Positions 7,304 to 28,649 of a DNA stretch of 35,697 nt are shown in pieces. A model generated the notes under the pieces. It made no database searches and was not told the DNA's origin. It saw only the letters and a list, made by a program, of their open reading frames with translations. This DNA is from Balneolales bacterium. GTDB taxonomy: Bacteria > Bacteroidota > Rhodothermia > Balneolales > HLUCCA01. How positions within the stretch are numbered: position 1 is the stretch's first letter; each line of letters opens with the position of its first letter. The DNA is taken from the NCBI GenBank assembly GCA_022565415.1, contig JAIUMT010000001.1, positions 1 through 35,697 on the forward strand, in the 5' to 3' direction. A program made the position numbers and the translations under genes.

Positions 7304-7606
7304 TTATTCACTTGCTTGAACTTTGGCTGCAATCTTGAGGTATGTAGCCACTACGTACGGGGCTTGCATCACAGCCAGGACAATGGAAAAGAACACTTTG
7401 TCCTTTTCCCACCAGCTGTACAGCAGCTCGAAATCACTCAATGTGATAGCTCCTATAACGGTGGCTGCAACTCCATTGAGGGTATGACCAATTTTCTTGA
7501 GCTCGTTCGCGCCCTGGTCAATTATTGTTCCTCTCTCCGGAGTGGGTTTTCCGATTAAATCGGTCACGGTATTAATTGCTCGTCTGATTAGTGCTAATTT
7601 TGGCAT
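7304..7606 (-). CDS. Holin-like small membrane protein (100 aa)
   Basis: Two hydrophobic segments (VAATVIGAITLSDF, VFFSIVLAVMQAPYVVATYLKIAA). It is the last gene of the lysis cassette. Confidence 0.45.
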   Translation of the reverse strand: MPKLALIRRAINTVTDLIGKPTPERGTIIDQGANELKKIGHTLNGVAATVIGAITLSDFELLYSWWEKDKVFFSIVLAVMQAPYVVATYLKIAAKVQASE

Positions 7607-7608
7607 AA

Positions 7609-7857
7609 CTATCTGCTCCTGTATTCCATGTCTGAGATTCGTTTGTCCAGCTCGTGTAGTTGCCGGATGGTGTTTATTTCAGCAGAAAGCGTTGATTGCG
7701 ACTGCCGAAGTAGTGCAATCTCTGTATTGAGAGAGTGCATAAGCTCGTTCGTTTTGAGCTGCGCGTTGAGTAACCAGCTGAAAAGGCCAATGAATACCAA
7801 TGGGAAAATGTATTCCTTGAATTTGCTAAAACTGTCTGTTGGAATCGGAAGAGTCAT
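7609..7857 (-). CDS. Membrane-anchored coiled-coil protein (spanin- or holin-accessory-like)
   Basis: Start placed at the ATG at 7857, 4 nt after the endolysin stop. It has an N-terminal TM segment (YIFPLVFIGLFSWLL) followed by a helical region. The longer ORF to 7935 would overlap the endolysin gene. Confidence 0.4.
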   Translation of the reverse strand: MTLPIPTDSFSKFKEYIFPLVFIGLFSWLLNAQLKTNELMHSLNTEIALLRQSQSTLSAEINTIRQLHELDKRISDMEYRSR

Positions 7858-7861
7858 TGCG

Positions 7862-8365
7862 TTAAGAATTGAAGAATGATATGGCTTGGTCGAGAGTGTA
7901 TTTGACTCCGCTTTTTGCGTAGAAGTAGCCATCAATTACATTTTGGTAGTAGTAGGAACGATCAGCGCGGAACCAGCGTAACGGCCTTCTGTGGGGATCT
8001 GGCGACATGTCAACATGCACTCCCACGGCCTTAGCTGTTTGCCCATTGCGGTACTGCAGGTTCCAATCGAAGTAGATCCCGGCACCGCGCCATCCCCAGA
8101 GCTCGGTAATTCTCCAAAGGCGTTCTGCGCTTAGTGTCTCCACCCGATACTTGCCAGGCATAAACAAAATGCAATCTATGGCCAGTCCTTTGCCATGTGC
8201 GCTTGTAGGACTATTTCGGAATGCGGATGTTACCATCGTTGGCATTCCATGCCATTCACGCCATTGCACAAAACGTTTAATAAATTCCGGATCCATCTTT
8301 TCCAGTCCTGGTATTTCACCGGGTGAAAAGTGCGGTGATGCTTCAATGATTTCTACAGCTGTCAT
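7862..8365 (-). CDS. Peptidase M15-family (zinc D-Ala-D-Ala carboxypeptidase-like) endolysin
   Basis: Zinc ligand motifs are SAHGKGLAIDC (H-x6-D) and GVHVDM (H-x-D). Confidence 0.75.
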   Translation of the reverse strand: MTAVEIIEASPHFSPGEIPGLEKMDPEFIKRFVQWREWHGMPTMVTSAFRNSPTSAHGKGLAIDCILFMPGKYRVETLSAERLWRITELWGWRGAGIYFDWNLQYRNGQTAKAVGVHVDMSPDPHRRPLRWFRADRSYYYQNVIDGYFYAKSGVKYTLDQAISFFNS

Positions 8366-8369
8366 GGTC

Positions 8370-8573
8370 TTACTTTAGAATCAAATACCCAACACCAGCA
8401 GCGAGTAATACGCCACCGGCAACCAGGTAGGAGTTTGCAGTTTCATTCGGAGCTTTGGGAACCTCAACAGTATCTTCACCTTGAGATTTAAGCGTTTTGT
8501 TCACGTTCTGGATGAAGGCACGAATGTCATCGATGATCTGTTGCTGTTCTTCTTGTGATGGAATCTGCGCCAT
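8370..8573 (-). CDS. Small C-terminally anchored membrane protein (67 aa)
   Basis: Acidic N-terminus. The C-terminal anchor is YLVAGGVLLAAGVGYLILK followed by the stop. Confidence 0.55.
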   Translation of the reverse strand: MAQIPSQEEQQQIIDDIRAFIQNVNKTLKSQGEDTVEVPKAPNETANSYLVAGGVLLAAGVGYLILK

Positions 8574-8965
8574 TATAGGTACCTATCGACTTGAGTGATC
8601 AGGTTACGTGCAGCAGTTACTATTTCCGGATAGTACTGTTTGAGCAGCGTTGAGTTGGTTATTTGAACCAATGCTGGCCGTGATGTTGTCAAAAATGCAA
8701 TGAAATCATCGTAGGACTTGCGAAGTGCTGCCTGTTCTTGCAGATACAGTTCATGTTGCTCCCTGGCTTGCCCTTCGGCCTCGTTTGCCACACTAATAAG
8801 CTGGGCAATTTGGGTTTGAAGTTGGTTGTTCGGCTGGTTGATCAGCGTACCGGATGATGAGCCACCGGTGGGGTAGCCTGGATAACCCGGATAGCCTGGG
8901 TAACCTAGAAAATTGAGATTGGATACATCGCTAAGATATCCGCTTTTACCTGACGTTCTGTTCAT
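8573..8965 (-). CDS. GKSGYLSD-motif protein with (GYP)4 repeat and helical C-terminus (130 aa)
   Basis: MNRTSGKSGYLSDVSNLNFLGYPGYPGYPGYP... The N-terminus is paralogous to the ORF at 25248-25520. Confidence 0.6.
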   Translation of the reverse strand: MNRTSGKSGYLSDVSNLNFLGYPGYPGYPGYPTGGSSSGTLINQPNNQLQTQIAQLISVANEAEGQAREQHELYLQEQAALRKSYDDFIAFLTTSRPALVQITNSTLLKQYYPEIVTAARNLITQVDRYL

Positions 8966-10037
8966 GGTTCTGGGTGGTTAAGTAGTTATAGATATTATTG
9001 ATTCGATTTACCGCATTCTCCCATGTGAAGTGGGGTAAAATAGACTGAGCACGCACTTTCATCGCATTTAGCTGCTGCTGGCTCATGGTCGCGAACTGGT
9101 TTAAAGCTTTCTGAATTGTTCCAGGCTCTTTTCCGCAGTAGAGTGCATAATCTTGTCGCAGGAAGTCTTGCATACCGTCTGCATAACTGGAGATCAGCAG
9201 ACAGTTAGATGCAAGAGCTTCCAGAGCGACAATTCCAAAAGGTTCATGGATAGAGGGTACTATCATGCCGTCACATTGTTGTAGTACGGATAACTTATCC
9301 TCACCCCACATTTGACCCATGTAGAAAGCGTTAGATTCCCGTTTCAAGTAGTTATTCAGAGCGCGTGAGATGGTAGGATCAGTGCCCAAACCACCGCCAA
9401 TGAAGTACATGTTTACATTGCTGGGTAACCGGGTTTCAAGTAGGTTGTGAAGTCCTTTCTGTGCCGTAAATCGACCGATAAATAGTAGCTTTCTATTGGT
9501 TGGGTTACCAGGTAGCTGAACATGTCGGCTTAATGTTCGCTGAAACTGATTTCGATCAATTCCATTATGCACGATTGAAACATTCGGCTTTTTATTGAAT
9601 CTATTCGCATAAGCAGCGCTCACGTGAATAATATGATCGGCGTGTCGTAAGCCAAATAGTTCAAGGCCGGCATGAGGTGTCACCGGAGACATAAACATGT
9701 CCGCTGCCGAAGCCAAATCTTCACAGAGTTTCGCCTCAGAGAGATGAATATGGCAGATTAATGGAATGCCAAGTACTGTTTTGAGCTGAACGCCAGTTTT
9801 AAACGTGTTTGCATCCATGGCGTGAATTACCTTACAGCTCTGCAGAAAACTCATGTTTATTGTACGAATGTCGTTGACATACGTGTAATTTGAGCCTCGA
9901 TGCGGTGCGTCTGTGGCCGGACCCTCAACAATGAAATGATATTCAGCCGGAAACCGCTTTAACGTTTCTTGCAAATACACGCCTAAGCCACCGAACGGTT
10001 TGCGTATGGAGTCCGGAGAAAGGATAATTACATTCAT
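8946..10037 (-). CDS. GT-B fold glycosyltransferase, family 4-like
   Basis: C-terminal EPFGIVALEALA (E-x7-E) motif, and LLFIGRFTAQKG typical of the Glycos_transf_1 domain. ATGA overlap with the upstream gene. Confidence 0.75.
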   Translation of the reverse strand: MNVIILSPDSIRKPFGGLGVYLQETLKRFPAEYHFIVEGPATDAPHRGSNYTYVNDIRTINMSFLQSCKVIHAMDANTFKTGVQLKTVLGIPLICHIHLSEAKLCEDLASAADMFMSPVTPHAGLELFGLRHADHIIHVSAAYANRFNKKPNVSIVHNGIDRNQFQRTLSRHVQLPGNPTNRKLLFIGRFTAQKGLHNLLETRLPSNVNMYFIGGGLGTDPTISRALNNYLKRESNAFYMGQMWGEDKLSVLQQCDGMIVPSIHEPFGIVALEALASNCLLISSYADGMQDFLRQDYALYCGKEPGTIQKALNQFATMSQQQLNAMKVRAQSILPHFTWENAVNRINNIYNYLTTQNHEQNVR

Positions 10038-10630
10038 CTGATTCGATTTAAAGTGAAAAACAGTAAACCGATTCCCACTAATGCAGCAGCACTGGTCATT
10101 GCCTGAAATCGTTCTGGATTTGTGATTGCCGTGAATCCACCGGCACCGGGTGAATGTACCTGGTCTGGCCAGAGAATCTCAGCGATGATTTGTGCTCTGG
10201 CCATAACATCCTTCCCGTAGTTGCCACCGGTTGTTATTTCGTCCGGATCTCGTCGAGCTGCTACTGCATTGGCCACGCGTCCTGGTCCGGCATTGTACGC
10301 TGCTGCTGCATGTTGCCAATTCTTTAATCGTTTGTAATCCGCGGACAAAAGCGAAGCACCATAATCGATAATGGCTGCGTGATCGTTTGGCCGTACTCGC
10401 TCGGTGAACTCGGAATGCCACCGACGATCTATTTGCATGAGGCCGACACCGTTTGTGAAGTCGCCCTGGTACATAACAAACAGCCTACTCGTTCCAATAT
10501 CGGTTTCCCGACTGGCCACGGCTAACAGTACGTCAATCGGCACGTTATGACGCGATGCAGCTTGCTCAAAAAAGGGAATCCATCCTTGAGCTGTGGCGTG
10601 TTGAAGTTGACTGTTTAATTGGGCAAGCAT
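10034..10630 (-). CDS. Lytic transglycosylase (SLT domain) with C-terminal membrane anchor
   Basis: SLT motifs are AVASRETD (catalytic Glu), GLMQID and AAAYNAGPG. The C-terminal hydrophobic tail is AAALVGIGLLFFTLNRIR. Confidence 0.85.
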   Translation of the reverse strand: MLAQLNSQLQHATAQGWIPFFEQAASRHNVPIDVLLAVASRETDIGTSRLFVMYQGDFTNGVGLMQIDRRWHSEFTERVRPNDHAAIIDYGASLLSADYKRLKNWQHAAAAYNAGPGRVANAVAARRDPDEITTGGNYGKDVMARAQIIAEILWPDQVHSPGAGGFTAITNPERFQAMTSAAALVGIGLLFFTLNRIR

Positions 10631-10926
10631 TAGATGAATTGCAATAGAATGATGAGTATAATCACGTTTGTAATCGTCGGAATGATTTTATCTTCCCACT
10701 CATACCTAGAGTCCCTCATTTCCCACTGGGCTTTTTCTCTACCCCAATAGAATCCGGCACCAAATGCACATCCAAAGAAGAGTGCATTCTCGATGGATGC
10801 AAAGATCAATGCCACGAGCGTTCCGGCAATCATTAGTGCGAAAGCCACAAAGGAGTGCAGAAACAAGTAGCCTACACCTAAGTGGTTTCTCATCCACCAC
10901 CCAATTTTTTTATCTAGGTTTTTCAT
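10630..10926 (-). CDS. Polytopic small membrane protein (98 aa)
   Basis: Three hydrophobic segments. Start and stop are coupled to the neighbouring genes. Confidence 0.55.
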   Translation of the reverse strand: MKNLDKKIGWWMRNHLGVGYLFLHSFVAFALMIAGTLVALIFASIENALFFGCAFGAGFYWGREKAQWEMRDSRYEWEDKIIPTITNVIILIILLQFI

Positions 10927-12203
10927 GAGGCAAATGATCCCTTTGATACATAACTACCACTCTCACGTCGCTCGAAGACTAAATCTGTACCAGATATCGT
11001 AATTCGCCATGAGCCGTCTGTGTTCTTGTCACCAATGAAAAATGATTCATTCTCACCTATACCCAGACCAGGGTTTGTTAAACTTCTGTCACTGAAGCTA
11101 TAGCCATCGAGAACTATAATATTTTCATTACCGACTCCAGCTGTAGTTAATGGTGTGCCCGTTCTGAATACATTTCCGATAGCTGAAATATTAGAACTGT
11201 TCTCGCCGACTTCGATGTTGACGGGGAAACCCGCGAATGAATTTCCTGATATGGCTGCATTTCTAAGAGTAGATGATGCTCTGTCAATAAACTGAATGGG
11301 TGCCGGATGGCTTGCGCTACCAGAGAAGTAATTTGCTGCTATAACGGTATTTATAACATTGCCATCAATCACTATTCCACCAATCCTGAAGTCATTTTGT
11401 GTGATAGAAATACCGTGTTGGCCAATGGTACCATTTCCTGATAAGAGTATCGCAGGTACGCCAGAAGCTATGTCAAACTCACATCCATGTACATTGATTT
11501 TTTGGACGTTTCCACCAGTTGTAAATGACAACCCGGCAATATCACATCCCTGAAACATGCTTTTTCTAACAAACGTCCAGCTTTGCGAGAATCCCGACTC
11601 TTGCTCAATCGATACACCATGGCCTGAGAAACCTCCAAATCTACAATCTTCTACATATATATCGGTTGCTCGTTGAGTTACTCTAATGCCAGCGGTACCT
11701 ACTGATTGGTTTGATTTATTGCCAAAGAACCAAATGTTACTAAACTTTACACCGTAAAGTTGAAGTGTTCCAAAGTCTTGCTCTGATTTTGCGCCATCAA
11801 CATGAATTATATCACAGTTTGCGTCATCTTTTAGTCTTAAGAGCACTGTTCTTCTAAAATCTGAATGAGCACAAAAAAGCAATCGTTTGGATACTACTAT
11901 TGTTTTGTCCACCTCGTAAAATATCGAAGCATTTTCACCATCAATGGTATTTGAAACTGATGAGAATGCTATAACACCAGCACTTCCAGCCCAATCGTTA
12001 CCTGCTCCAAGTGGCTCGTATGGTATGTTATCATGTGCATACTGGACGGTATCTGAGAAGCTTTCACTTATAAATACGATTTCACCGTTATTGTTCTGTG
12101 CGGTATATGTGTTACCTTCTCTTGATATCAGGTAGCTATATCCCTGATAGTTGTGGCCAGCTATGGTACCGAAGATGTTTTGAAGTTGATTAATTCCACT
12201 CAT
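10923..12203 (-). CDS. Right-handed parallel beta-helix protein (spike / receptor-binding or depolymerase candidate)
   Basis: Repeated turns of the type ISITQNDFRIGGIVIDGNVINTVIAANYF and ISGNSFAGFPVNIEVGENSSNISAIGNVF, typical of pectate-lyase-fold repeats. Confidence 0.55.
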   Translation of the reverse strand: MSGINQLQNIFGTIAGHNYQGYSYLISREGNTYTAQNNNGEIVFISESFSDTVQYAHDNIPYEPLGAGNDWAGSAGVIAFSSVSNTIDGENASIFYEVDKTIVVSKRLLFCAHSDFRRTVLLRLKDDANCDIIHVDGAKSEQDFGTLQLYGVKFSNIWFFGNKSNQSVGTAGIRVTQRATDIYVEDCRFGGFSGHGVSIEQESGFSQSWTFVRKSMFQGCDIAGLSFTTGGNVQKINVHGCEFDIASGVPAILLSGNGTIGQHGISITQNDFRIGGIVIDGNVINTVIAANYFSGSASHPAPIQFIDRASSTLRNAAISGNSFAGFPVNIEVGENSSNISAIGNVFRTGTPLTTAGVGNENIIVLDGYSFSDRSLTNPGLGIGENESFFIGDKNTDGSWRITISGTDLVFERRESGSYVSKGSFAS

Positions 12204-12216
12204 AAAGAGACCTCGT

Positions 12217-12723
12217 TTAAGTCGTTAAATAATTGCCCTCAGAATCAATCAAATAATTGCCCTGAGAGTCGGTTAAAAAGGATTGTCCTTCCGGTAGTTC
12301 CGGCAAGGAGAAATCATAACGTATATCCACAAAAATGGAACTGGTTGGCTCAGCCGATCCCGTTGGTTGAAATGAGCTGGTGGCCATAATTACCAGGTTA
12401 TCGTGCATTGCAAATCGCACCAAACCGCGTACTTCCAGGGTAATCCCTGATTTGCCTGGTAACTCAATGATGTATTCAGGTTTGTCGGTAGCGTAATCCG
12501 GGTTAAACTCATTGTATAACCGCAGATATACGACTTCATCATTAGGGTTGAACGCCTTTAGGCCATAAACATCAGTTCGCCCTATGCTTACGGGTAATTT
12601 GGTATTGTTCACATCCCACGACCGATACCTTGAAAGTCCGTCAGCATTCGCTTTCCGATACGCTGCCTCGATGTTTACCAGGGAAGCGCGAATATGTGAA
12701 AGGGGCTTAATTATTGATTCCAT
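12217..12723 (-). CDS. Hypothetical structural protein (168 aa), beta-rich, C-terminal tandem DS(Q/E)GNYL(I/T) repeat
   Basis: Sits in the late operon. The C-terminus is LTDSQGNYLIDSEGNYLTT. Confidence 0.5.
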   Translation of the reverse strand: MESIIKPLSHIRASLVNIEAAYRKANADGLSRYRSWDVNNTKLPVSIGRTDVYGLKAFNPNDEVVYLRLYNEFNPDYATDKPEYIIELPGKSGITLEVRGLVRFAMHDNLVIMATSSFQPTGSAEPTSSIFVDIRYDFSLPELPEGQSFLTDSQGNYLIDSEGNYLTT

Positions 12724-12731
12724 ACTTCTCC

Positions 12732-13805
12732 TTAAAATGTGGTTCCATCAACCCAGATTGTCGTACTGTCCACACGGGTACCTAGCATTTGGCGAAACTC
12801 CTCTTTCGACCAGTATTTTGAGATATCACTGTTCGTAAAGTCACAGCCTTGTAGGTTGCAGAACTCTTCGAAAATGGGCTGCTGCATGAAAAATGTGTTC
12901 CGGAAGTCGTTATACTGGCAGAAGTAGTTAAAGCGCGTTTCGCCCTGAAACTGGCAGTAGCTGAAATTATTGGCAATGATGTAGCCACTGATCTGATTTC
13001 TGTCGTAGAAAATCGAGTTCTGGAAATCGCACTCAACAATTTTACCGATCAATCCGGTGCGTATTTGCCACGATGAGGAGTCAAATCTGGACTTGCGTAA
13101 AATCGGAGTTACCGCATCTTCTCCCTGGTCATAATGCCGGAAGTTCCCTCCGGATAAATCACTTTCAATGATGGTGCTAGAGACAAACTTAATTTTCGTC
13201 ATCACTGGTGATTGAAACTTGCATTTACGGATCACCACGTTTCGCCATTCCACCACCGCGCCATTACTGCCATTGTCATTCCAGTAACTCTGATCAAAGA
13301 TGCAGCTCTCAAGCGTACATGCGGTTAACTTCGCCTGGTACATGTGCGGAAACTTGAAATGAGAATCCTCAAACAAGCATCCAAGAAAGTTCACATACGG
13401 TGCAAATAGATACAGGCTAGTGATCTTGTAGAATGAACTCCCACGACACGTAGAAATGTCGAATCGATCAGGGTTGTTAGCCTGAAACGACGATCCGTTC
13501 TTGAGCAGCGATAAAGGGAAGTAGTTCAGCGGTGTATCGCCAATGATCGCGCGTAGATCAATATCATCGAAGATCATTCCTCGATAGGCTTCAATGCTGG
13601 TGGCCGGTTTACGACCGGGTTCCAGCACAGTCTCCCATCTTCCGGGATAGCCAACTATTCCGTTAAAGAACTCTGCAAAGGATGTTTCTTCCCGGCCAAG
13701 TTGAGCTTGCAGGTAAATACGCTGATTAAATCGGTTCCACTGTGCGATCAGCTGACGAACTTTGTCGGGTGCTATTCGGAGGGTATCGTTTACTATGGCA
13801 CTCAT
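12732..13805 (-). CDS. Pentapeptide-repeat-like protein (357 aa)
   Basis: The C-terminal two-thirds has a 5-residue periodicity with central F/L/I, e.g. CDFQN SIFYD ... NNFSY CQFQG ETRFN YFCQY NDFRN TFFMQ ... CDFTN SDISK. Confidence 0.5.
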   Translation of the reverse strand: MSAIVNDTLRIAPDKVRQLIAQWNRFNQRIYLQAQLGREETSFAEFFNGIVGYPGRWETVLEPGRKPATSIEAYRGMIFDDIDLRAIIGDTPLNYFPLSLLKNGSSFQANNPDRFDISTCRGSSFYKITSLYLFAPYVNFLGCLFEDSHFKFPHMYQAKLTACTLESCIFDQSYWNDNGSNGAVVEWRNVVIRKCKFQSPVMTKIKFVSSTIIESDLSGGNFRHYDQGEDAVTPILRKSRFDSSSWQIRTGLIGKIVECDFQNSIFYDRNQISGYIIANNFSYCQFQGETRFNYFCQYNDFRNTFFMQQPIFEEFCNLQGCDFTNSDISKYWSKEEFRQMLGTRVDSTTIWVDGTTF

Positions 13806-14892: not shown

Positions 14893-14921
14893 GGTATTTT
14901 CGTCGATTGGTTAGTATGAAA

Positions 14922-14951
14922 CCCGGCACACAGATTGTGCTGTGTGCCGGG
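14922..14951 (-). terminator. 12-bp perfect stem-loop CCCGGCACACAG-(6 nt)-CTGTGTGCCGGG immediately after the 197-aa gene
   Basis: Read directly. On the minus strand it is followed by TTTCAT. It is likely a partial terminator or mRNA-stabilising hairpin within the operon. Confidence 0.5.
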
Positions 14952-22300: not shown

Positions 22301-22472
22301 CGGTCAAATATATACCAGTACCCCAACCTGGTGCATCACCAACTACGAATTTGTCGAATCTTCTGTTTGTACCGTGATATAGCTTCAGCGGGTTGCCGTT
22401 TTTATCGACTACCTTGCTGCCCTTAAACCACTGTGAAAAGCGGGTTGCACTATGTGTTTTTACTCCAGTCAT
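16302..22472 (-). CDS. Polyvalent giant protein (2056 aa): N-terminal ART-like domain + N6-adenine DNA methyltransferase + SNF2/DEAD-like helicase + about 430-aa unknown C-terminal region
   Basis: N-terminus is FSQWFKGSKVVDKNGNPLKLYHGT...GIYLT...ASEFG. MTase motif I is EPGCGVGSFIG and motif IV is GNPPFGN. Helicase Walker A is GVGAGKT, DEAH box is IVDEAHNFKN, motif III is LLTATP and motif VI is QRNGRGVRQGN. Confidence 0.9.
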   Translation of the reverse strand: MTGVKTHSATRFSQWFKGSKVVDKNGNPLKLYHGTNRRFDKFVVGDAPGWGTGIYLTDNPENASEFGDKVLQVYASIKKPVYEKDLHNIEGKIRATKAWRIAIKKEIDRQLRRQGYLNDDESQIDLDYNEVLQNDFQVINAALRELGYDGIIAQDSNNIEGSEIIAFYSEQVMIDREVEQSSYRNNQAAAPSLQAQREQRFDALVALYAKAIAAGKIKDEFKDAIELEFSNLGQEINLNFQEIYGKRRPQTTLRSVSQDREQGSGSSQKRTAPKSGGKSVSEHAPLRDRPSGSGQRHDARSFATPAVQKENYSLRTTPDIQLSRKERIELNRAAAALLKEKHSSYTKDELKTLSLYTGQGGLLSVDVGVLNQHYTRYSLARFMWAALIRLGFDGGWVLEPGCGVGSFIGTKPDNTNILAFDYDTLAVQIASSLYPSDDVRQADIKSFDFAAHQQYINAAIGNPPFGNYSRYSRNDTFADLKPKIHDHFILKMLETVRPGGLIAVISSTGTMDKKNASAREAMARMAHFLGAYRLPSSTFEANASTTVTTDVMFFQKRDTQRDLSDQDRIFITSEQVESSGVYMNAWYKKNPDCILGTLEIGAGQFGSQIAVRGAMDEDKLESVLNTFPFKALERVPAAVPQPDQLKSSDKVQLPDEAASANAILFILKQLISAQKELASTSQKAEIRTDLKKAINEHIKQYGWFDKSKIIEQYFGQSPDYNQLRTVARPGGKGSITFSDIVERDTIFNAEFAPKLRTDKLSEIILYCRQTGLRSDIDVLTKITGFSAGKIKEMAERDPSAFLDPSSGTYLIRPEYISGNLKEKLDLAKQAGIAKNITAITEMMPTRKTASQINFDLADVNTYMPVEVAKAYVKYATGGELGGTRRAWAIPRYNTSLAQMSGWGWKGDYASIIEYYLNGTDYPKQRVPAEADDQLKQKAQEDQVLNNNKMRRLIPKRFTEWIVEIADDEIRQQAVDAWNDTYNVTIEPNYTGETFSCANMGSVWTNGQPFAPRDHQKKWIEKALLVGAAVNAHGVGAGKTLSAILLAGLMKERGMANKPMFVVPSKVVEKWIDEYQHAFPGANVLNLKTDRKNKELMLSMAQQNDYDAIFVTHEGFKAIPNSPELVEEYQNLRLQKIRSEIDKISAQITDSELAAVQASASGKKVTLKNPLQKILKKMFVSLMNMEQKVSVALESTKLNSIYFDELGVDALIVDEAHNFKNLFLSGMAVELGIGVGTSSDRAEEAFAKFHYINQAMGNRNVFLLTATPTNNTPLEAYILLSAIAPHYIEQLKLDDVDSFINQYARVESVQTADMLGNFKDKLVVTGYKNLDTLRGIFNRYVEFIDTSDFPEVRRILPVAKYNPEYLEPGLRDQAIITNLNDRVDAIKSDKPLMIPNKRTGEDSRDNYLFVAGSGSRAAVDPAFYVLENIPTPGDSADIVLDTGKIEPDSKAGVMCKTLVDNYWKKSRDVEGKDGSITDGAKNGQLIFCDPITTTKGRNYHRLLRDTLVEMGIPKNEIAIINGGENSKPEQKIKIQQRFNAGEIRVIIGNTSSMGEGMDLNKFCTDIHHLDVPWKPSELTQRNGRGVRQGNVNAEVRIHYYLLRKSLDAYRYTLLNKKSNWIRELWYGKDTEMESEDTESGGWDYETIMMALLDDAEKQKALEISRDLKRAVSMYNNLSDDYQSFKANIVALKQERDEYSRGQATYAYANIESLPPVSADGQRTLKSLVNDLSPRGWTSGYVTKKDGGYESGINLDYRYSGISLGNLAISHQRDGQMMYAVGRLFDRVYYGSDTDYKALEKKLFDFVERFFNSYPVNRKTRIDKYEMYGQRVKTFESREEQTKFEVAEAAMAVLALLDKADRVTATDPAIGQYFDDRFMAETRSVFMSRKSWAEQTFKLGVSSGMLKSGVRKNPGGNLQLAYLGRAVKFHTDNAAFSGRDYMFSDAKGSKLFIVPANRVRPAQKTVHAPAAQRMHEEFKHYPADGNDYQVDLPDTQMKNIGYAHKIWYSSDKIMQPGDQKNKVNYYVHDFDAHKRPVYQLDDVLVIDNLMIDGRGILN

Positions 22473-22473
22473 G

Positions 22474-23850
22474 TTAAGCGATTGCTTGAGATAAAAGGGT
22501 TTCCAACCTGTCCATGCGGGAATCGAATGTTTCTTTTTGCTTCGATTTTGGGCGTATTTTGCGCGGTTTTACGGTTCGCTTTGGTGCAGCATCTTTTAGC
22601 GTGTTGAACCGATCGTTGGCTTTGTCGCCATTGATATGCTCAAAGATAGGTTTGCCGTCCTGTCTGATTTGGTAGTTTCCACCGGTGTAAATAAGGTCGA
22701 TTTCACTTCCGGATTTCGTTTTGCTCGATCGCAACACGCTGCCATCTTTAATCTCTGCTTTTCGTGCATCTTCGACTTTAACAGTTGGTCTTGACTGTGT
22801 AGCTGGTTTGGTTTTCGTCGCTGGGGTGCTGGCCTTAACCGTTTTAGGTTTAGATACAGTCTTATCCCCTTTTTTGGCGTATTCCTTTTCTTGGCGACGA
22901 TATTCTTGAGCACCCAACACTTTGCGTGCATGTGCTTGATTTATGATTTCAATAACGGTAGAACCTGTTTCGGTGGACATCTTTTTCCAGGCCGACACAA
23001 AGGTGTCCGCGCAATGGGTATGAATTACCTTACCAGATTGAAGCATTTCCAAATACGATTTCTTGTTTTGACGCTTGTATCGGAAGGAAACCGGATTGCG
23101 ATCGACCGTACAGCTGTGCGCAAAGTCCACCATGTCGTTGAGGCGTTTAATCCCGCGGATTTTATGTCGCTTGGCTATGTCTGATAGTGGGATTTTGAAC
23201 GGTACGGGTACCGGGTTTTGGCGGGGTGATGCTTGTTTCTTTCGATCGCTGGTCTTGGATTTGCGTTGATCGAAATTTATTGGCATCTCCTGAGCATCGT
23301 GTGGTAGTCGATTTTTCTCTACATAGACAACACCATCGGCAACGCGTAACTCCACATCAACCATGTGTGCCAGCATGGATGAACCTTTAAACTTCCCGTC
23401 TTTGGTGGCATGGTTAACGACAATGAAGAAAATATCCTCTTGCTTACACCACTCATACAAATCAATTTGTTCTTTTTCGCGCAGATGCGCCATGTGCGCA
23501 GAATCTAACACCAGCACTTTAGCCTTGTGTTTAATCACGTCCTGCTTGAGGTGGTGTAATCCCAGATAGTCGCCAACAAGAAGATCTTTCACCCCGGCAC
23601 GCATCCGTTCGATTTTATCTTTCATGGTAGCGCCAGCACCTTCTTCACTCGAGCAGTACAGCACGGTTCCACGACGCTCCGATAGTCCTTTGGCCAACAT
23701 GATTGAAACCGTCGATTTTCCAGAGAATTTTACACCCCATATAAATACAGACGTATTGCTTTGGGCACGACCAATAATCTTCTCGAAGCCTGGAATATAG
23801 AATCCCGGGAAGTTTGTTTTTACCAGATCGGATGCGCGAACGACACTCAT
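22474..23850 (-). CDS. RecA/RadA(Sms)-like P-loop ATPase with long lysine-rich C-terminal region (458 aa)
   Basis: Walker A is WGVKFSGKST and Walker B is KVLVLDS. NHATKDGKFKGSSMLAHMVDVEL...EKNR parallels RadA (HVTKEG.IAGP..LEHMVD...KNRFG). The C-terminal half is rich in K/P/T (KPKTVKASTPATKTKPATQ, KRTVKPRKIRPKSKQKE). Confidence 0.6.
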   Translation of the reverse strand: MSVVRASDLVKTNFPGFYIPGFEKIIGRAQSNTSVFIWGVKFSGKSTVSIMLAKGLSERRGTVLYCSSEEGAGATMKDKIERMRAGVKDLLVGDYLGLHHLKQDVIKHKAKVLVLDSAHMAHLREKEQIDLYEWCKQEDIFFIVVNHATKDGKFKGSSMLAHMVDVELRVADGVVYVEKNRLPHDAQEMPINFDQRKSKTSDRKKQASPRQNPVPVPFKIPLSDIAKRHKIRGIKRLNDMVDFAHSCTVDRNPVSFRYKRQNKKSYLEMLQSGKVIHTHCADTFVSAWKKMSTETGSTVIEIINQAHARKVLGAQEYRRQEKEYAKKGDKTVSKPKTVKASTPATKTKPATQSRPTVKVEDARKAEIKDGSVLRSSKTKSGSEIDLIYTGGNYQIRQDGKPIFEHINGDKANDRFNTLKDAAPKRTVKPRKIRPKSKQKETFDSRMDRLETLLSQAIA

Positions 23851-24203
23851 TAGAATCTCCTCAGAATGATACCCGATACTAGGCCGCCAATAGCAATACC
23901 TAACGCAACGGGTGCGACTTGTTTTAATAATGATTTCGGCCCACTTTCACCGTCCCCCGATATCAAATCCACTACTTTCTGCGCATCAATGTGTTTGAAG
24001 TACTCATCAACCACACGTGCATTAGCTTGGTAGCTGTTTCGAAGCACTTGCGGATTTGGCGACAGGTCTTTGGCGATTATTGCCTCCGTAACAAAAAAAC
24101 CTCTGCGATCTCTGGTAAGCGAGTCTACACCACGCACAACCGTATCACGCCAATCGTTGATTTCTTCGAATTCAGCTTCTTGTATGTGAGAAAATTGGCT
24201 CAT
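23850..24203 (-). CDS. C-terminally anchored membrane protein (117 aa)
   Basis: Soluble acidic N-terminal domain. The C-terminal anchor is VAPVALGIAIGGLVSGIILRRF followed by the stop. Confidence 0.55.
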   Translation of the reverse strand: MSQFSHIQEAEFEEINDWRDTVVRGVDSLTRDRRGFFVTEAIIAKDLSPNPQVLRNSYQANARVVDEYFKHIDAQKVVDLISGDGESGPKSLLKQVAPVALGIAIGGLVSGIILRRF

Positions 24204-24862
24204 TTAGACAGGGCTTTTTTTAGGTCACGTTGAATTTGTGGCCACAATGGATAGGTGAAATAGATTCCAGCGCCAACTAGCGCCAGAATGGTGATATTTC
24301 GCGTTGTTTTGGCGACGCGTTCCATGGTTCCAGCCGGACCCACAACAGCGTTCGTAAGACGCTCTGATAGAGGTAATGTTGGTAATGTGATAACACCCGC
24401 GTTTACCAGTGCATTTTGACTGGTATCAAAAAGGAAGTCGGATGTTGCTGCAATTGGCTCTGCTTTGCCAGATTCAATGTCTTCTCTGGATGTGCGTTCT
24501 TTGAACACTTCCAGTCGAATCCAGTGATTTTTGTCTGGCCGGAAGGTTGAATCGAAAATGAGTCTAGCAATCCCAGAACAATTGGATAACTGTGAGGTCA
24601 CCACATTAGTAAATGCCCATATTTTGCCAGCATGATCATATCGGCCACGGGCTACCACTACTGCGTCCACGCATCGAACCGGACCACCAATAGCGAACCA
24701 ATTCTCGGGACGAAGCACAGCGAATCCAGCGCGTTCGGTCTGCACCTCAACATCGAGTGCGAACGGTGTTCCCGCGGGTGGAAGACCCGAATCCGGGTAT
24801 CGCTTCGTAATGCGAAGCTGCAAGCCCGTTTGATTAATGACGTCGCTTAAATAGTGGTTCAT
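24200..24862 (-). CDS. C-terminally anchored protein (220 aa) with N-terminal HYLSDV motif
   Basis: MNHYLSDVINQ... The anchor near the C-terminus is NITILALVGAGIYFTYPLW. ATGA overlaps on both sides. Confidence 0.6.
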   Translation of the reverse strand: MNHYLSDVINQTGLQLRITKRYPDSGLPPAGTPFALDVEVQTERAGFAVLRPENWFAIGGPVRCVDAVVVARGRYDHAGKIWAFTNVVTSQLSNCSGIARLIFDSTFRPDKNHWIRLEVFKERTSREDIESGKAEPIAATSDFLFDTSQNALVNAGVITLPTLPLSERLTNAVVGPAGTMERVAKTTRNITILALVGAGIYFTYPLWPQIQRDLKKALSK

Positions 24863-25245
24863 CGTCGTTTCCGTTTGCGTGAGATTAAAGCTACTGCTGC
24901 GCCAACCACCACCGCTCCCCCTACAAAGAGCCAGGTTTTATTGTGTGTGTGCCCTGTGGTGGCAGTGGTGGTTGTGGTCGTAACAGCTACATCGTTGTTT
25001 GTACCGGAATCTACTCGTGTTGGTGGTAGTGGGTTTACCGGAGTCAACACGTTGTCTCTGATACTATCTATGATGGTGCCAATTCGAGAGCTGTGCCCGG
25101 TATTAGAACCAGTATCAGTACCTTGATCTGGTATCAACCCATCATTTCTAGAACCGTTATCTGGTTGAAATGGATCTATGTAGTAGTCTAGTTCGCGCTG
25201 GTGACGAGATTGGCCTACATCGTTTAAATATCCTGATCCACGCAT
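24859..25245 (-). CDS. C-terminally anchored protein (128 aa) with N-terminal GSGYLND motif
   Basis: MRGSGYLNDVGQ..., a T-rich linker (VAVTTTTTTATTG), then the anchor WLFVGGAVVVGAAVALISRKRKRR followed by the stop. Confidence 0.6.
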   Translation of the reverse strand: MRGSGYLNDVGQSRHQRELDYYIDPFQPDNGSRNDGLIPDQGTDTGSNTGHSSRIGTIIDSIRDNVLTPVNPLPPTRVDSGTNNDVAVTTTTTTATTGHTHNKTWLFVGGAVVVGAAVALISRKRKRR

Positions 25246-25247
25246 GA

Positions 25248-25520
25248 TTACTTCTTGTTGTAGAGTTTATATGCGCCATAACCCAAAGCTACCAGTGCTA
25301 AAATGGTTAGGAGTCTGGGACTTACAACCGTTGCTGTAACCGGAGTCACAGGCACAAATCGTCCGTCAACGAGATTTTCATTACCCGTTAGCGTGTTCGG
25401 TGGGTAGGATACAGGTGGGTTTACGTGAACCGGATAGCCTGGTCCTGGTACGGGATAGCCTAGATCACCCAAAAACCCAATGTCTGATATATATCCGCTT
25501 TTTCCTGTTGTTCTCGTCAT
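25248..25520 (-). CDS. C-terminally anchored protein (90 aa) with N-terminal GKSGYISD motif and GYP-rich segment
   Basis: Start moved to the ATG at 25520 (AAGAGG Shine-Dalgarno 6-7 nt upstream). This removes the overlap with the upstream gene and aligns MTRTTGKSGYISDIGFLGDLGYP with MNRTSGKSGYLSDVSNLNFLGYP of 8573-8965. The anchor is LTILALVALGYGAYKLYNKK. Confidence 0.6.
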   Translation of the reverse strand: MTRTTGKSGYISDIGFLGDLGYPVPGPGYPVHVNPPVSYPPNTLTGNENLVDGRFVPVTPVTATVVSPRLLTILALVALGYGAYKLYNKK

Positions 25521-25524
25521 GGCA

Positions 25525-25851
25525 TTACCTCTTTTTCGTTTTAGCAAATTTGTACACACCGTAACCGGCTGCTGCAATCACGACGCCAGTCAGTGCAATC
25601 GTTGCAAATGATCGAGCTGGACGCGCTGTAACTTGGACTTCCGGCAATGTTCGTTGAACAGGCGTGTTTGGGTTAAAACTGATAGGCATTATGCCTGCGT
25701 TTGTAAATGGTGGTGTCCATGTCTGGTTACCACCTTGATTTACCGGCATGGTTGATACCAGGTTATCGATCACTGGATTTACGATGAGGTCACGCCACCA
25801 TTTGCTGTCATCAAGAAAACCGGATTGGCACGAATTACACTGCGTATTCAT
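25525..25851 (-). CDS. C-terminally anchored protein (108 aa) with N-terminal SGFLDD motif
   Basis: The ATG at 25851 is preferred over the GTG at 25884, which would overlap the upstream gene by 26 nt. MNTQCNSCQSGFLDDSKWW... The anchor is IALTGVVIAAAGYGVYKFAKTKKR. Confidence 0.55.
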   Translation of the reverse strand: MNTQCNSCQSGFLDDSKWWRDLIVNPVIDNLVSTMPVNQGGNQTWTPPFTNAGIMPISFNPNTPVQRTLPEVQVTARPARSFATIALTGVVIAAAGYGVYKFAKTKKR

Positions 25852-25858
25852 TGTTTGA

Positions 25859-27037
25859 TTATTTAAGTAAGAGGTAGGTTCCACCGGCAGCAGCTATTAC
25901 ACCGATACCGACGAGAAGTGGATTGATGCCAGCTCCAGTACTTAACATCGTCGACATATTTTCCGGTATTATTGCTGCTGCTGTGCTTTGTGGCTTATTT
26001 AGCTCCTCAGCGCGAGCAAATACCGCTTGCATGATTTCGGGCTTCGATTTTACATGAATTTCCCAATCGCCATTCCAGGGTAATTTCTCATTGAGTGCCT
26101 GAATGAGATAGGGATTAGCTTGTGCATACTGCAACATGGCATGTGCAGCTTCATGATTGTTGTAGTGAATGTAAACTTGTGGGCTCATTCCCATTTGTCG
26201 CAATCCACTTACAGCTGCATCGCGACTTGCGCGACGTTCTGCACGTCCTGCTGCACGGTTGGTGAAGATGCCGGTGAATCCACCAATTACAGCGCCAACC
26301 GCTGTACCTACACCCGGGAATAGTGCTGTGCCAATCGCAGCTCCCGTTGCTGATCCTGCTGCTACGTGATTCGTAGCATCATCTAAATAACCGGATTTAC
26401 CGGTCGGTGTTTGAGTTTCGTAATGATCTGACATGGTTTCTGCGTTACTGTGCACATCGGAAAGCATAACTTCCCAACGTTTGGTTATCTGTTCTGCAGG
26501 AATGCCAACTCCTGCTGATTTTGCTAGCGTAACGTCGAATGGGTACCAGCGGCCATTATGTTCAAATTCAAGATATATGTGTGAAAACTGTGTGGGATTG
26601 TTGTTTTTTTGACCAATCACCACCACACGAGAGGGAATACCCAGGCTCATCAACAATGATCCGGCCAGTATGGTCATATCATCGCAATCACCTGATTTCA
26701 GTTTAAGCGTTACTTCTGCGCCTTGCAGCCATTCGATATGATGTGGATCTCGAACGTATGCAATGGTGTGTTTCATCCAGTTATACACCGCGCTGGCCAC
26801 GTGGCCAAAATTTCGTCGATCAGGATGTCCGGTTCGCTTATCAACCGGAATCCCTTGTGTTATTTCCAGTGCTTTTTGTCGCACCTGAAAATTGCCTCTA
26901 CCATCGAGAATTAATTCGCGAATTTTATCAACTACACCAGCGAGTCCGGGGTAGCTTCCGCGAGATTTACGAACTTCTGAGGCCGTACGCTCCTCGTCTG
27001 TTCGGTTCCTCGTAAGTGTGAGGCTTGGGAGAGTCAT
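25859..27037 (-). CDS. Transglutaminase-like (papain-fold) cysteine protease-domain protein with glycine-zipper region and C-terminal anchor (392 aa)
   Basis: SGDCDDMTILAGSLLMSLGIPSRVVVIG...FSHIYLEFEHNGRWYPFDVT matches the Cys/His/Asp core G.C..fa....l.r.lGIP.R.v.G...H.w.e......W...D.t. An internal GKSGYLDD motif is followed by GSATGAAIGTALFPGVGTAVGAVIGGFTG and the terminal LLVGIGVIAAAGGTYLLLK. Confidence 0.75.
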   Translation of the reverse strand: MTLPSLTLTRNRTDEERTASEVRKSRGSYPGLAGVVDKIRELILDGRGNFQVRQKALEITQGIPVDKRTGHPDRRNFGHVASAVYNWMKHTIAYVRDPHHIEWLQGAEVTLKLKSGDCDDMTILAGSLLMSLGIPSRVVVIGQKNNNPTQFSHIYLEFEHNGRWYPFDVTLAKSAGVGIPAEQITKRWEVMLSDVHSNAETMSDHYETQTPTGKSGYLDDATNHVAAGSATGAAIGTALFPGVGTAVGAVIGGFTGIFTNRAAGRAERRASRDAAVSGLRQMGMSPQVYIHYNNHEAAHAMLQYAQANPYLIQALNEKLPWNGDWEIHVKSKPEIMQAVFARAEELNKPQSTAAAIIPENMSTMLSTGAGINPLLVGIGVIAAAGGTYLLLK

Positions 27038-27258
27038 GGTTTAGTAATTACATCAACTACTCTGCCAGTGGTGGCAACCGGGTTAAATCCAAATTCTTTG
27101 CCGATCATGGCCACTTGTTCTTTGGTCATGTCGCCAAAGGTGATCAGAATCGCGCATGGCTTATCACGCTGGGTTACCAGGCGAACAGCCGATTCTTGCA
27201 CAAGCTTTGCCGTTTGCTCATGCAGCTGGGTTATGCCGATAGTTTCAATTTTGCTCAT
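27034..27258 (-). CDS. Small hypothetical protein (74 aa), weak Phd/YefM-like N-terminal pattern
   Basis: IGITQLHEQTAKLVQESAVRLVTQRDKPCAILITF resembles the antitoxin N-terminal fold. It is ATGA-coupled to both neighbours and no toxin-like partner is present. Confidence 0.35.
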   Translation of the reverse strand: MSKIETIGITQLHEQTAKLVQESAVRLVTQRDKPCAILITFGDMTKEQVAMIGKEFGFNPVATTGRVVDVITKP

Positions 27259-28649
27259 ATCTTTTGCTTAAAGACTTCCAATACATTCACGATAAGTGCG
27301 CGTACTGGATCGGGTGGGTTGATTTGAAATGTGGAGAAAAGCATGTTGGTTGCTTCTTTTGCCGGCATGTACTTGAGCACGGTTTTAGCCTGGTTCAAAT
27401 TGGCTATGAGTGGCTCAATAACAAGGGCTACACGCTGCGGTGTTACCTTGCGTTCGATCGCTTGAGTAGCAACTTGTTCAGCGATCATCATCCATTCGCG
27501 GGCACCTGGTTGTACACCTTGCTGCGCTAAAATCGTCAACTGTTTGCCGACCATTTCAGCAATAGCGGAACTGTCCGGAGATGCTTTAGCTACCATTGCT
27601 GAAACAGCATTCTCAATGATGGTATTGGCAAAATTCTGAAATGCTTGTTGCATAATTTGATCAGGGGAGGGCTTTTGTTGTTGGTTTGTGCGCACTTCCA
27701 CGGCATCGCTCACATGAGCATCTGAAACAGGTTGAGGTGCATTGGCGTTGGCCATTACTTTTTCGATGAGAGGCATGAACTTATTTAATGAGTTCATCCA
27801 GGCGGGTGTTTCGTCGTCGGCATCCTCATCGTCATTAATGCCGTTTAGCTCATTTTTGAGCTGGGCTATCGCAAGTTCTTGCTTAACTGCAGAGAGCTCT
27901 GATCGTAAATTTGATATTTCGTTTGAATGCTGCTGGATAAGTGTCACCTTTTCATCGGCCAGGCGTTGGGTTAGATCAGCATTTCGTTGCGCAAGCTCAT
28001 TGTTTCGCTGCATGTGTGACTGTACATCAGCTTGAAGTAATTGCAAACGGTGATCGTAGTCACCGCGAATTTCTTCTTTAATTCTGGTCCGCAAGGTTTC
28101 AGCATCTAAAGCGGATAGAGAAGGAGAGGCATCTTTACTTTTTTTGCCATTTTCAGGCGAATCGATCGTAAAGCAAATTTCGATTTCAGCACCTTCTTCG
28201 TCCGTTGTACGAAGTAGGTATTCACCACCTTGACGCAGATCAGTTTTGGCAATTTTACTAAGCTGAGCTGGATTGTAACGCGGGATGGCCTTCATGTAGA
28301 TCGGTCGATCATCACTCAGACGCATTAGAATGCCATGAAATGGAAAATCGGATAGAATCTCCATTTCCGTTTTAGCAAACGTACTGTCAATTTTGGGGTT
28401 AGCTGGCCTACCTACCGGGTTGCGATATAATGGTTGATCCGCAGTAGCAACAGTTTGTTTTTGCCGTTCCATTTCTTCAAGAGCATCCTGACGACCTCGG
28501 TGATAATCACCGTTAGTTACGCTATCGTTTAGATAATTGACATCACGTCTATATTCCGCATCGGCTAAAATATCACTGTGATGTCCATTTAGATGGGTAT
28601 TGGGATCCATTGCGGTTGTTTGGTGATCAGGTGAGTAGGTGAGTATCAT
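27255..28649 (-). CDS. Coiled-coil protein (464 aa); scaffold/assembly-factor candidate, first gene of the late operon
   Basis: Central heptad-like region LQLLQADVQSHMQRNNELAQRNADLTQRLADEKVTLIQQHSNEISNLRSELSAVKQELAIAQLKNEL, an acidic linker DDEDADDE, and a helical C-terminal third. The start is uncertain (weak RBS). Confidence 0.45.
   Translation of the reverse strand: MILTYSPDHQTTAMDPNTHLNGHHSDILADAEYRRDVNYLNDSVTNGDYHRGRQDALEEMERQKQTVATADQPLYRNPVGRPANPKIDSTFAKTEMEILSDFPFHGILMRLSDDRPIYMKAIPRYNPAQLSKIAKTDLRQGGEYLLRTTDEEGAEIEICFTIDSPENGKKSKDASPSLSALDAETLRTRIKEEIRGDYDHRLQLLQADVQSHMQRNNELAQRNADLTQRLADEKVTLIQQHSNEISNLRSELSAVKQELAIAQLKNELNGINDDEDADDETPAWMNSLNKFMPLIEKVMANANAPQPVSDAHVSDAVEVRTNQQQKPSPDQIMQQAFQNFANTIIENAVSAMVAKASPDSSAIAEMVGKQLTILAQQGVQPGAREWMMIAEQVATQAIERKVTPQRVALVIEPLIANLNQAKTVLKYMPAKEATNMLFSTFQINPPDPVRALIVNVLEVFKQKI

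Follow-up and report, generated by a model that had tools for sequence, protein, structure and literature searches.

A circular element of a Balneolales bacterium is very likely a temperate relative of the tailless membrane-containing phage SSIP-1

Organization of the element and its operon

The DNA analysed here is a 35,697-nt stretch (the window, at its full length) of contig JAIUMT010000001.1 from a Balneolales bacterium. Its minus strand carries a long operon that the original prediction, made from the sequence alone, had tentatively ascribed to a temperate tailless virus with an internal membrane and jelly-roll capsid proteins. The first and last 127 nt of the window form an exact direct repeat (1-127 = 35571-35697), and this terminal overlap therefore gives a circular assembly of 35,570 bp, with a G+C content of ~44%. 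Between 28649 and 7304, the minus strand holds 25 open reading frames (ORFs) of at least 50 aa. Most of their junctions overlap by 1-4 nt or leave a gap of at most 13 nt, and the sole larger gaps, of 63-87 nt, border the genes for proteins of 195, 197 and 251 aa. A strong intrinsic terminator (7157-7187, minus strand), with a 14-bp stem followed by a T-run, closes the operon. The co-orientation and coupling of the genes stand as first described, and the earlier count of 26 genes becomes 25 at the 50-aa limit, a difference that one smaller ORF may explain.

All late ORFs of at least 67 aa, together with the larger and some smaller ORFs outside the operon, were scanned against Pfam, PHROGs and NCBIfam. 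As the original prediction had it, the scanned ORFs gave no match to terminase, portal, HK97 capsid or genuine tail families in any of the three libraries, and the profile searches of the late ORFs for the large terminase (TerL), portal and HK97 proteins found none. The tail-labelled PHROG matches were weak and are artefacts because of shared domains: those that would name the 392-aa protein a tape measure fall on a Gly-zipper/transmembrane stretch (residues ~220-270), those for a lytic tail fibre and an internal virion protein fall on an SLT domain. The tape-measure and tail-lysin labels on the 392-aa protein were rejected. A megablast search with the operon as query gave no match among 50,697 phage records.

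A strict Walker A motif is present in a 458-aa ATPase and in a 2056-aa protein; the 195-aa protein also matches the strict pattern, but within a membrane region rich in Gly, and this match was set aside as probably spurious. Three P-loop proteins had been proposed earlier, and two of them hold, but the third, a 765-aa protein encoded outside the operon, has only the variant GPANSGKGK, and its assignment to helicase superfamily 3 (SF3) was not confirmed by the libraries. The sole operon ATPase is RadA-like and has no nuclease domain, in line with the earlier statement that a terminase-like ATPase-plus-nuclease layout is lacking.

Collinear homology with SSIP-1

The capsid of SSIP-1, a tailless and icosahedral Salisaeta phage, has T=49 geometry, measures ~100 nm and contains an internal membrane; the double-stranded DNA (dsDNA) genome is a circle of 44 kb (PMC6356626, PMC6260650, PMC4958249). 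The SSIP-1 record, JN880423, has a length of 43.8 kb, and the NCBI taxonomy lists the phage as an unclassified dsDNA phage. We found that ten genes of the window operon are homologues of SSIP-1 genes in the same order (blastp E 1e-4 to 1e-22; E 1e-6 to 1e-34 with profiles built from the window proteins and their metagenomic relatives). The first operon gene (27255-28649; all operon coordinates are on the minus strand) encodes a 464-aa protein that corresponds to SSIP-1 ORF33 (blastp E 3e-7, profile E 2.4e-12). This protein has a central coiled coil, matched no Pfam, PHROG or NCBIfam family and may, at a guess, be a scaffold or assembly factor. It is followed by the 392-aa protein (25859-27037), the counterpart of gp34 (blastp E 4.5e-18, profile E 8.6e-28), which combines a transglutaminase-like (papain-fold) core with a Gly-zipper and transmembrane segments; the transglutaminase core is confirmed by Pfam Transglut_core (E 2.1e-12). 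A 117-aa protein, the last in a block of five small proteins, corresponds to ORF36 (profile E 4e-6), the 458-aa ATPase (22474-23850) to gp40 (blastp E 1e-22, profile E 5e-32) and the 2056-aa protein (16302-22472) to gp43, which has 2319 aa (E 1e-10).

The homology continues through the capsid region. The 195-aa protein (15651-16238), basic at its N-terminus and with membrane segments rich in Gly, corresponds to gp44 (profile E 1.3e-10), and the 197-aa protein (14980-15573) to the two paralogues gp45 (E 2e-20) and gp46 (E 1e-10). The 251-aa protein (14137-14892) is the homologue of gp47 (256 aa; tblastn 26% identity, 90% coverage, E 5e-7), which was its sole match in a tblastn search of the 50,697 phage records. 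The 112-aa protein (13802-14140) corresponds to gp48 (blastp E 1.7e-4, profile E 1e-7), and a 198-aa SLT protein, encoded within 10034-10926, to ORF54 (blastp E 1e-21, profile E 1.7e-34). Eight of the SSIP-1 counterparts, gp34, gp40 and gp43-gp48, are labelled structural proteins in GenBank JN880423.

The two genomes also share a giant methyltransferase-containing protein between the ATPase and capsid genes and a hairpin that separates the single and double jelly-roll genes. Both are circular and of tens of kb, although for the window this describes the assembly and not the form of the DNA in a virion. SSIP-1 differs in its length (43.8 kb versus 35.6 kb), in the identity of the shared proteins (23-37%) and in having two single jelly-roll genes where the window has one, and it has no detectable homologue of the window's PstI-type restriction-modification (R-M) system, GT4 glycosyltransferase, pentapeptide-repeat protein or SGYL motif. 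Its record annotates no integrase (its ORFs were not scanned for one), whereas integrase, attP-like site and repressor-like genes are all present in the window. The original prediction had called 35.6 kb unusually large; set against SSIP-1 and related contigs of 34-40 kb, this length is ordinary for the lineage. Because the homology is collinear and operon-wide, the window is a distant member of the SSIP-1 lineage. We therefore consider it very likely that this circle of 35.6 kb represents a temperate member of the group around SSIP-1 and that its minus-strand operon is the virion module.

Further relatives of the module

The module was also found in a 40-kb JGI contig (L001), in two Logan contigs (L002 and L009), in a 34-kb contig (L012) and in the Rhodothermales metagenome-assembled genome (MAG) CBDFGO01 (L006-L008). 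L002 and L009 are without the polyvalent protein, and L012 has a very divergent gp47-like protein and an ATPase with a weak AAA_25 match. The MAG carries three integrated copies of the module with two single jelly-roll paralogues, as in SSIP-1, and the clade of the window has one. Salisaeta belongs to the Rhodothermales, and the Rhodothermales host is notable because it is of the same order. For all module proteins that they share, the copies L007 and L008 have the same blast statistics, and one of the two is located at the end of a contig; they may be an assembly duplicate or a multi-copy prophage. Pattern scans of IMG/VR with the 197-aa and 251-aa families yielded no confirmed relative; these scans used short peptide patterns and are weak evidence of absence, but they hint that standard virus-calling may miss the lineage.

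Predicted jelly-roll proteins

The AlphaFold2 model of the 251-aa protein, computed from a 48-sequence alignment, has a predicted local distance difference test score (pLDDT) of 95.1 and a predicted template-modelling score (pTM) of 0.90. It consists of two consecutive eight-strand units that are joined by a helix, and a further helix lies between strands five and six of each unit. Foldseek searches of the PDB matched the model to the arabinofuranosidase 8ic8 (E 3.6e-6), which we take to be a GH172/DUF2961-type enzyme, to peptidylglycine hydroxylating monooxygenase (PHM) and to PM2 P2 (E 5.8e-5, probability 1.0), followed by the capsid proteins of phiCjT23, PR772 (P3), STIV and PBCV-1. These are the very proteins, from viruses and cells alike, that PMC8812541 defines as the double jelly-roll set. 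In BFVD the top match, far above the others, was the 256-aa protein I1ZBI0, presumably SSIP-1 gp47 (template-modelling (TM) score 0.87, root mean square deviation (rmsd) 2.3 A, E 2.6e-20). The model thus predicts a tandem double jelly-roll, and we regard the 251-aa protein as a candidate capsomer protein. The original prediction had placed this beta-rich protein among capsid candidates and had pointed, among other viruses, to P23-77 with its adjacent small and large single-barrel proteins. A jelly-roll fold is supported, but the tandem arrangement and the PM2/PRD1-type matches do not fit a large single-barrel protein of the VP17 kind, and no capsid protein of P23-77 (VP17), HHIV-2 or SH1 was among the top 50 PDB matches.

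The two halves of the 251-aa family are still alike in sequence: hhalign aligned the N-half (residues 12-130) with the C-half (136-251) over 100 columns with a probability of 98.7% and an E of 3.5e-16. We know of no classical double jelly-roll capsid protein whose halves show such sequence similarity. In the same comparisons, the 197-, 112- and 168-aa families were not linked to either half. The protein has few close homologues, and an exhaustive profile search collected 56 representative clusters at 50% identity, all of ~250 aa. Sequence and profile searches of the PDB with the 251-aa and 197-aa families returned nothing meaningful, and a Pfam scan of all 48 members of the 251-aa family gave no match; because these sequence and profile searches were empty, the jelly-roll assignment rests on predicted structure and on SSIP-1 homology.

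For the 197-aa protein, AlphaFold2 gave a weaker model (pLDDT 72.9, pTM 0.71). Its top Foldseek match was the SPV1 capsid protein (E 5.7e-3), followed by the coat proteins of a nanovirus, STMV and a luteovirus, by PHM and by TNF-family sandwiches. The protein is therefore modelled, with less certainty, as a single jelly-roll-like capsid protein, which agrees with the jelly-roll capsid fold that the original prediction had suspected for it, at a weak E-value. The gene of the 112-aa protein is translationally coupled to that of the double jelly-roll protein, and its product may be a vertex or minor capsid protein.

A 12-bp stem-loop (14922-14951, minus strand) lies between the 197- and 251-aa genes. 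The hairpin, already noted in the original prediction, is real: the 71-nt segment around it has a folding energy of -28.6 kcal/mol and a z of -6.9. A stem-loop occurs at the same position in L001 (9899-9952), L002 (6533-6558), L009 (3445-3470) and SSIP-1 (35984-36017), without conservation of its sequence, and those of L002 and L009 are canonical terminators with U6-U9 tracts. It is probable that the stem-loop of the window serves as an attenuator or an mRNA-stabilising hairpin.

ATPase and polyvalent protein

The 458-aa ATPase has an N-terminal RadA/RecA-like domain (~residues 20-170) with the Walker A sequence GVKFSGKS, and ends in a basic, Lys-rich tail. The RadA-like character ascribed to it before is confirmed by its matches to RadA in the PDB (E 3.7e-6) and to TIGR00416 (RadA/Sms; E 2.3e-10), to which PHROG 6891 can be added (E 2e-20); no FtsK, HerA or A32 family was matched at E <=0.05. 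Its SSIP-1 counterpart gp40 is a predicted packaging ATPase (PMC4124505).

The adjacent 2056-aa protein contains ART-PolyVal, N6-adenine methyltransferase and SNF2 helicase domains (Pfam) and matches the PHROG 'DarB-like antirestriction' (E 2.6e-168). It shares this combination with phage P1 DarB and other polyvalent proteins, but it differs from them in being encoded within a tailless-phage structural operon and in carrying a lineage-specific C-terminal domain. Its SSIP-1 counterpart gp43 is a virion protein, which fits the delivery of polyvalent proteins together with the DNA. The conserved C-terminal domain of ~150 aa (16305-16754, minus strand) ends in ...ID.RGILN, with an invariant RGILN end. 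It was found in proteins of L002 (4114-5175), L009 (904-1965), L001 (5984-8557), L006 (5895-8465), L012 (6319-8307) and SSIP-1 (26863-33822), always C-terminal and always in the protein next to the ATPase or on the ATPase itself. In L002 and L009, without polyvalent cargo, the domain is fused straight to the ATPase domain (353 aa), and in the other genomes it is the last part of cargo proteins with lengths from 662 to 2319 aa, so that, from these sequences, it looks as if variable cargo has been inserted between the ATPase and the RGILN domain. The domain has no relative in the PDB or Pfam, and its only PHROG match is the family that holds SSIP-1 gp43; it may be a virion-incorporation or vertex-docking module that tethers anti-defence cargo. 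In L001 (1572-8557) the polyvalent protein is represented by two overlapping ORFs of 1515 and 833 aa; the gene may be truly split there, or a frameshift or an error of sequencing may have divided it.

Small membrane, entry, spike and lysis genes

A crude hydropathy scan detected transmembrane segments in ten late proteins (392, 119, 109, 128, 117, 195, 98, 198, 67 and 100 aa), in agreement with the earlier count of at least ten small membrane proteins. Five small proteins of 119, 109, 128, 220 and 117 aa form a block (23850-25884), and four of them have a C-terminal transmembrane segment; they are candidate virion-membrane proteins. Downstream of the capsid genes lies the gene for a 357-aa pentapeptide-repeat protein (12732-13805), whose position is conserved in L001, L002 and L009 and which we would guess to be a vertex or spike component. 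The two proteins that follow, of 168 and 426 aa (10923-12723), have no family match and no PDB match. L001 is the sole relative with a homologue of the 168-aa protein, and none of the relatives has one of the 426-aa protein. The 426-aa protein, beta-helix-like as judged by the repeat pattern of its sequence, is a candidate receptor-binding spike. The next segment (10034-10926) encodes a 98-aa protein with two transmembrane segments and the 198-aa SLT protein with a C-terminal transmembrane anchor. Both the membrane-anchored transglycosylase and the pentapeptide-repeat protein had been named in the original prediction, and Pfam supports each of them (SLT E 3.3e-10; Pentapeptide E 1.3e-5).

A 363-aa GT4 glycosyltransferase (Glycos_transf_1 E 3e-17, above the Pfam cutoff), a 130-aa protein with the sequence GKSGYLSD and a 67-aa transmembrane protein are encoded at 8370-10037; the glycosyltransferase is an addition to the original prediction. 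The operon ends (7304-8365) with a 167-aa LAS/M15-like peptidase containing the motif SAHGKGLAID and with proteins of 108 and 100 aa that have hydrophobic segments, probably a lysis cassette. Searches of the 426- and 167-aa proteins, and of the 765-aa protein encoded outside the operon, against PDB sequences gave nothing meaningful.

A short motif, SG[YFW][LIVM][SDNE][DE], typically GKSGYLSD, recurs in six late proteins, five of which have predicted transmembrane segments (25859-27037, 25525-25884, 25248-25577, 24859-25245, 15651-16238 and 8573-8965, all on the minus strand). By residue shuffling, 0.022 occurrences would be expected, and none of 500 shuffles had more than 1. A tighter form, SG[YF]L[SDN][DE], is found in three of the five proteins of the small block. 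The motif is kept in the L001 and L002 orthologues, but neither SSIP-1 nor the Rhodothermales prophages have it. A role as a signal for sorting, binding or processing is conceivable, and the adjacent transglutaminase/papain-fold protein contains the motif as well.

Lysogeny, replication and other modules

The lysogeny module (4611-6142, plus strand) consists of an attP-like region and a tyrosine integrase gene (Pfam Phage_integrase E 9e-17). The attP-like region (4611-4962, plus strand) contains a tRNA 3' fragment at ~4745-4775 (GTGGGTTCGAATCCCACCTTCGGTA), covering the T-arm and acceptor strand, which is followed by a terminator-like hairpin with a T-run and has an arm repeat of 22 nt (CTGGGGTAACTATTGGGGTAAC), in three copies, on its flanks. 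The integrase ORF spans 4712-6142, and the 392-aa integrase of L001 aligns with its product from window residue 130 on; the true start is probably the ATG at 4970, giving ~390 aa. Library scans showed that the window also encodes CI- and HTH_3-type regulators. Together with the Rhodothermales prophages, the integrase, the attP-like site with its tRNA fragment and the repressor-like genes indicate, as judged from sequence, a temperate lifestyle.

A complete PstI/BsuBI-type R-M pair lies at 696-3093 (plus strand), with a BsuBI_PstI endonuclease (312 aa, E 2e-63) and an Eco57I/N6 methyltransferase of 489 aa; the polyvalent protein brings a further methyltransferase domain. The protein of 765 aa (31128-33425, minus strand), a putative replication protein, contains the sequences GPANSGKGK, WLDEF and LFTSN, which by eye fit an SF3 helicase; it had no match in Pfam, PHROGs, NCBIfam or PDB sequences. 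A tRNA-Met (CAT) gene (28739-28811, minus strand) lies directly upstream of the first operon gene on the same strand, and an Rfam scan detected nothing but this tRNA.

Discussion

Taken together, the reading as a tailless virus is supported by two independent lines, the collinear homology of ten genes with SSIP-1 and the jelly-roll folds predicted for two proteins, and the temperate internal-membrane virus of the original prediction is in this respect upheld. In all likelihood, the operon from 28649 to 7157 is a module for virion assembly, packaging, entry and lysis of a tailless icosahedral particle with an internal membrane, a particle with which the transmembrane segments in ten late proteins would be consistent. 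We propose that the jelly-roll proteins of 197, 251 and probably 112 aa would form the capsomers and vertices of a shell, and that this shell would enclose a lipid vesicle studded with ~10 small transmembrane proteins. The virion-associated, gp40-like RadA/RecA ATPase may pump the circular dsDNA into the preformed particle. The DarB-like polyvalent protein may be built into the virion via its C-terminal domain, enter the cell with the DNA and counter restriction, and the membrane-anchored SLT protein and the transglutaminase-fold protein may breach the cell wall at entry. The M15-like peptidase and small membrane proteins would lyse the cell, and the integrase, the attP-like site and the CI-like repressors would allow lysogeny.

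Several points weigh against this interpretation. The presumed virion morphology of the element is carried over from SSIP-1 at 23-37% protein identity, and the protein abundances of SSIP-1 and the identity of its 'two major capsid protein types' are known second-hand. Superposition of the 251-aa model on PM2 P2, STIV and PR772 gives global TM scores of only 0.4-0.5 and rmsd values of 7-10 A, and a side-by-side barrel packing as in capsids is at best presumptive. The 197-aa model is of moderate confidence, with weak structural matches (E ~5e-3). To our knowledge, all characterised membrane-containing dsDNA phages use an FtsK/HerA-type ATPase; the window ATPase is not of this type, and its packaging role is therefore an assumption. 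The 167-aa peptidase falls below curated thresholds (Pfam Peptidase_M15_3 E 0.027; PHROG endolysin E 0.0025).

Two readings other than a tailless virus were considered. SLT enzymes, small membrane proteins and polyvalent proteins occur in conjugative systems, and the operon might encode a membrane-associated DNA-transfer or secretion apparatus of a plasmid or integrative element, a view that would suit a circular contig with an integrase, an R-M system and an SF3-like replication protein as well as the IMG/VR pattern scans without relatives. We nevertheless hold it to be very improbable: eight of the SSIP-1 counterparts carry a label as structural proteins of the virion, two capsid-type jelly-roll folds are predicted, a probable lysis cassette ends the operon, and VirB4, coupling-protein and relaxase families had no match in Pfam or NCBIfam among the scanned ORFs, on which ground a conjugative element was rejected. 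That the element is instead a tailed phage or its satellite, whose terminase, portal and HK97 genes have diverged beyond recognition, is exceedingly improbable. It would find room in the sizeable proteins of 464, 220, 357 and 426 aa that have no assigned fold, but nothing in the three profile libraries supports it, the only ATPase of the operon is RadA-like and lacks a nuclease domain, and the closest characterised relative is tailless. A satellite that borrows a capsid was rejected as well, since the operon has capsid-fold genes of its own.

Within the tailless-virus interpretation, either double jelly-roll trimers or single jelly-roll hexamers could build the bulk of the lattice. With a probability that we put only just below even, the lattice is PM2/PRD1-like: trimers of the 251-aa protein would be pseudohexameric capsomers, the 197-aa protein would have a cementing, decorating or membrane-facing role, and the 112-aa protein would be the penton. 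The fold class and the match list of the 251-aa protein fit double jelly-roll capsid proteins, its family is kept in all relatives, with its 56 representative clusters, and in every characterised virus with a double jelly-roll fold that protein is the major capsid protein (PMC8812541). The capsomers of SSIP-1, reportedly described in 2012 as upright and pseudohexameric, also speak for such a lattice. However, the low TM scores to these same capsid proteins do not favour such a lattice, and the conserved terminator-like hairpin after the single jelly-roll gene suggests an excess of the single jelly-roll protein and a regulated stoichiometry. Moreover, the 197-aa protein is better conserved than the 251-aa protein, with identities to the window of 82% versus 73% in L001 and 48% versus 38% in L002. 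It is also quite possible, at somewhat short of an even chance, that the lattice is SPV1/P23-77-like, with hexameric capsomers of the 197-aa protein (gp45/gp46 in SSIP-1) and the double jelly-roll protein as a vertex or minor component. The SPV1 capsid protein tops the structural matches of the 197-aa model, the hairpin sits behind the gene that would supply the capsomers, the order of ATPase, small and larger jelly-roll protein echoes that of P23-77, and the two paralogues in SSIP-1 and the Rhodothermales prophages resemble the two helvetiavirus capsid proteins. Reviews likewise place SSIP-1 among viruses with two single-barrel capsid protein types, one of the reviews with a question mark (PMC6356626, PMC4958249, PMC5332951), a placement that speaks against a lattice of double jelly-roll trimers; reviews also group it with P23-77-type viruses, sphaerolipoviruses and SPV1. 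On the other hand, the modest model and weak matches of the 197-aa protein, and the lack of a sequence or profile link between its family and the double jelly-roll halves, count against a single jelly-roll lattice, and a conserved full-size double jelly-roll protein without a lattice role would be unprecedented. From the predicted folds, single and double jelly-roll families would occur side by side in the lineage, a picture more complicated than that of two single-barrel major capsid proteins.

This combination sets the element apart from each of the known systems. With PM2 and PRD1 it shares a compact double jelly-roll (251 aa versus the 269 aa of PM2 P2), many small membrane proteins and the existence of temperate relatives. 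With PRD1 it further shares a virion-type lytic transglycosylase comparable to P7 and an ATPase comparable to P9, the SSIP-1 homologue gp40 being annotated as structural. It differs from both in lacking sequence similarity, in having a genome 2.4-3.5 times larger, in a RadA/RecA-like ATPase in place of the FtsK/HerA (A32-like) type, in an additional conserved single jelly-roll protein of ~200 aa and in two barrels that are still alike in sequence and reach only the modest TM scores given above. For the FtsK/HerA-type packaging ATPase of Bamfordvirae, the operon ATPase gave no family match at E <=0.05. With P23-77 and the sphaerolipoviruses the window shares the gene order of ATPase, small jelly-roll and larger jelly-roll. 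Genomes of similar size occur among them: that of SH1 has ~31 kb, and that of HHIV-2 is 30 kb of linear DNA (PMC6260650). SPV1 provides the best structural match of the 197-aa protein. P23-77 differs in the type of its ATPase and in a VP17-type barrel with a tower, where the window has a tandem duplicated jelly-roll.

SSIP-1, formerly a singleton, thereby gains a wider lineage that includes temperate members and Rhodothermales prophages. In the literature searched, no SSIP-1 relative has been reported since 2012, SSIP-1 is missing from two surveys of double jelly-roll viruses, and we found no report of the gp47-type double jelly-roll fold, its internal duplication, the RadA-like motor or the cargo-tethering C-terminal domain. 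We suggest, as a tentative and on balance doubtful proposal, that SSIP-1-like elements form a broad, unclassified and overlooked lineage of 34-44 kb tailless phages that combine an SPV1/helvetiavirus-like single jelly-roll, a duplicated double jelly-roll and a RadA/RecA motor. Such phages would either have invented the double jelly-roll capsomer independently or stand as a living intermediate between the virus kingdoms with single and with double jelly-rolls. If true, this would touch the disputed origin of Bamfordvirae directly. The predicted presence of both jelly-roll types, with the duplication still visible in the double one, is relevant to the debate on whether double jelly-roll capsid proteins descend from single-barrel proteins of viruses or from enzymes of cells (PMC8812541). 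There are also two leads on mechanism, a RadA-like ATPase that may replace the canonical packaging motor and a C-terminal domain that may tether variable anti-defence cargo.

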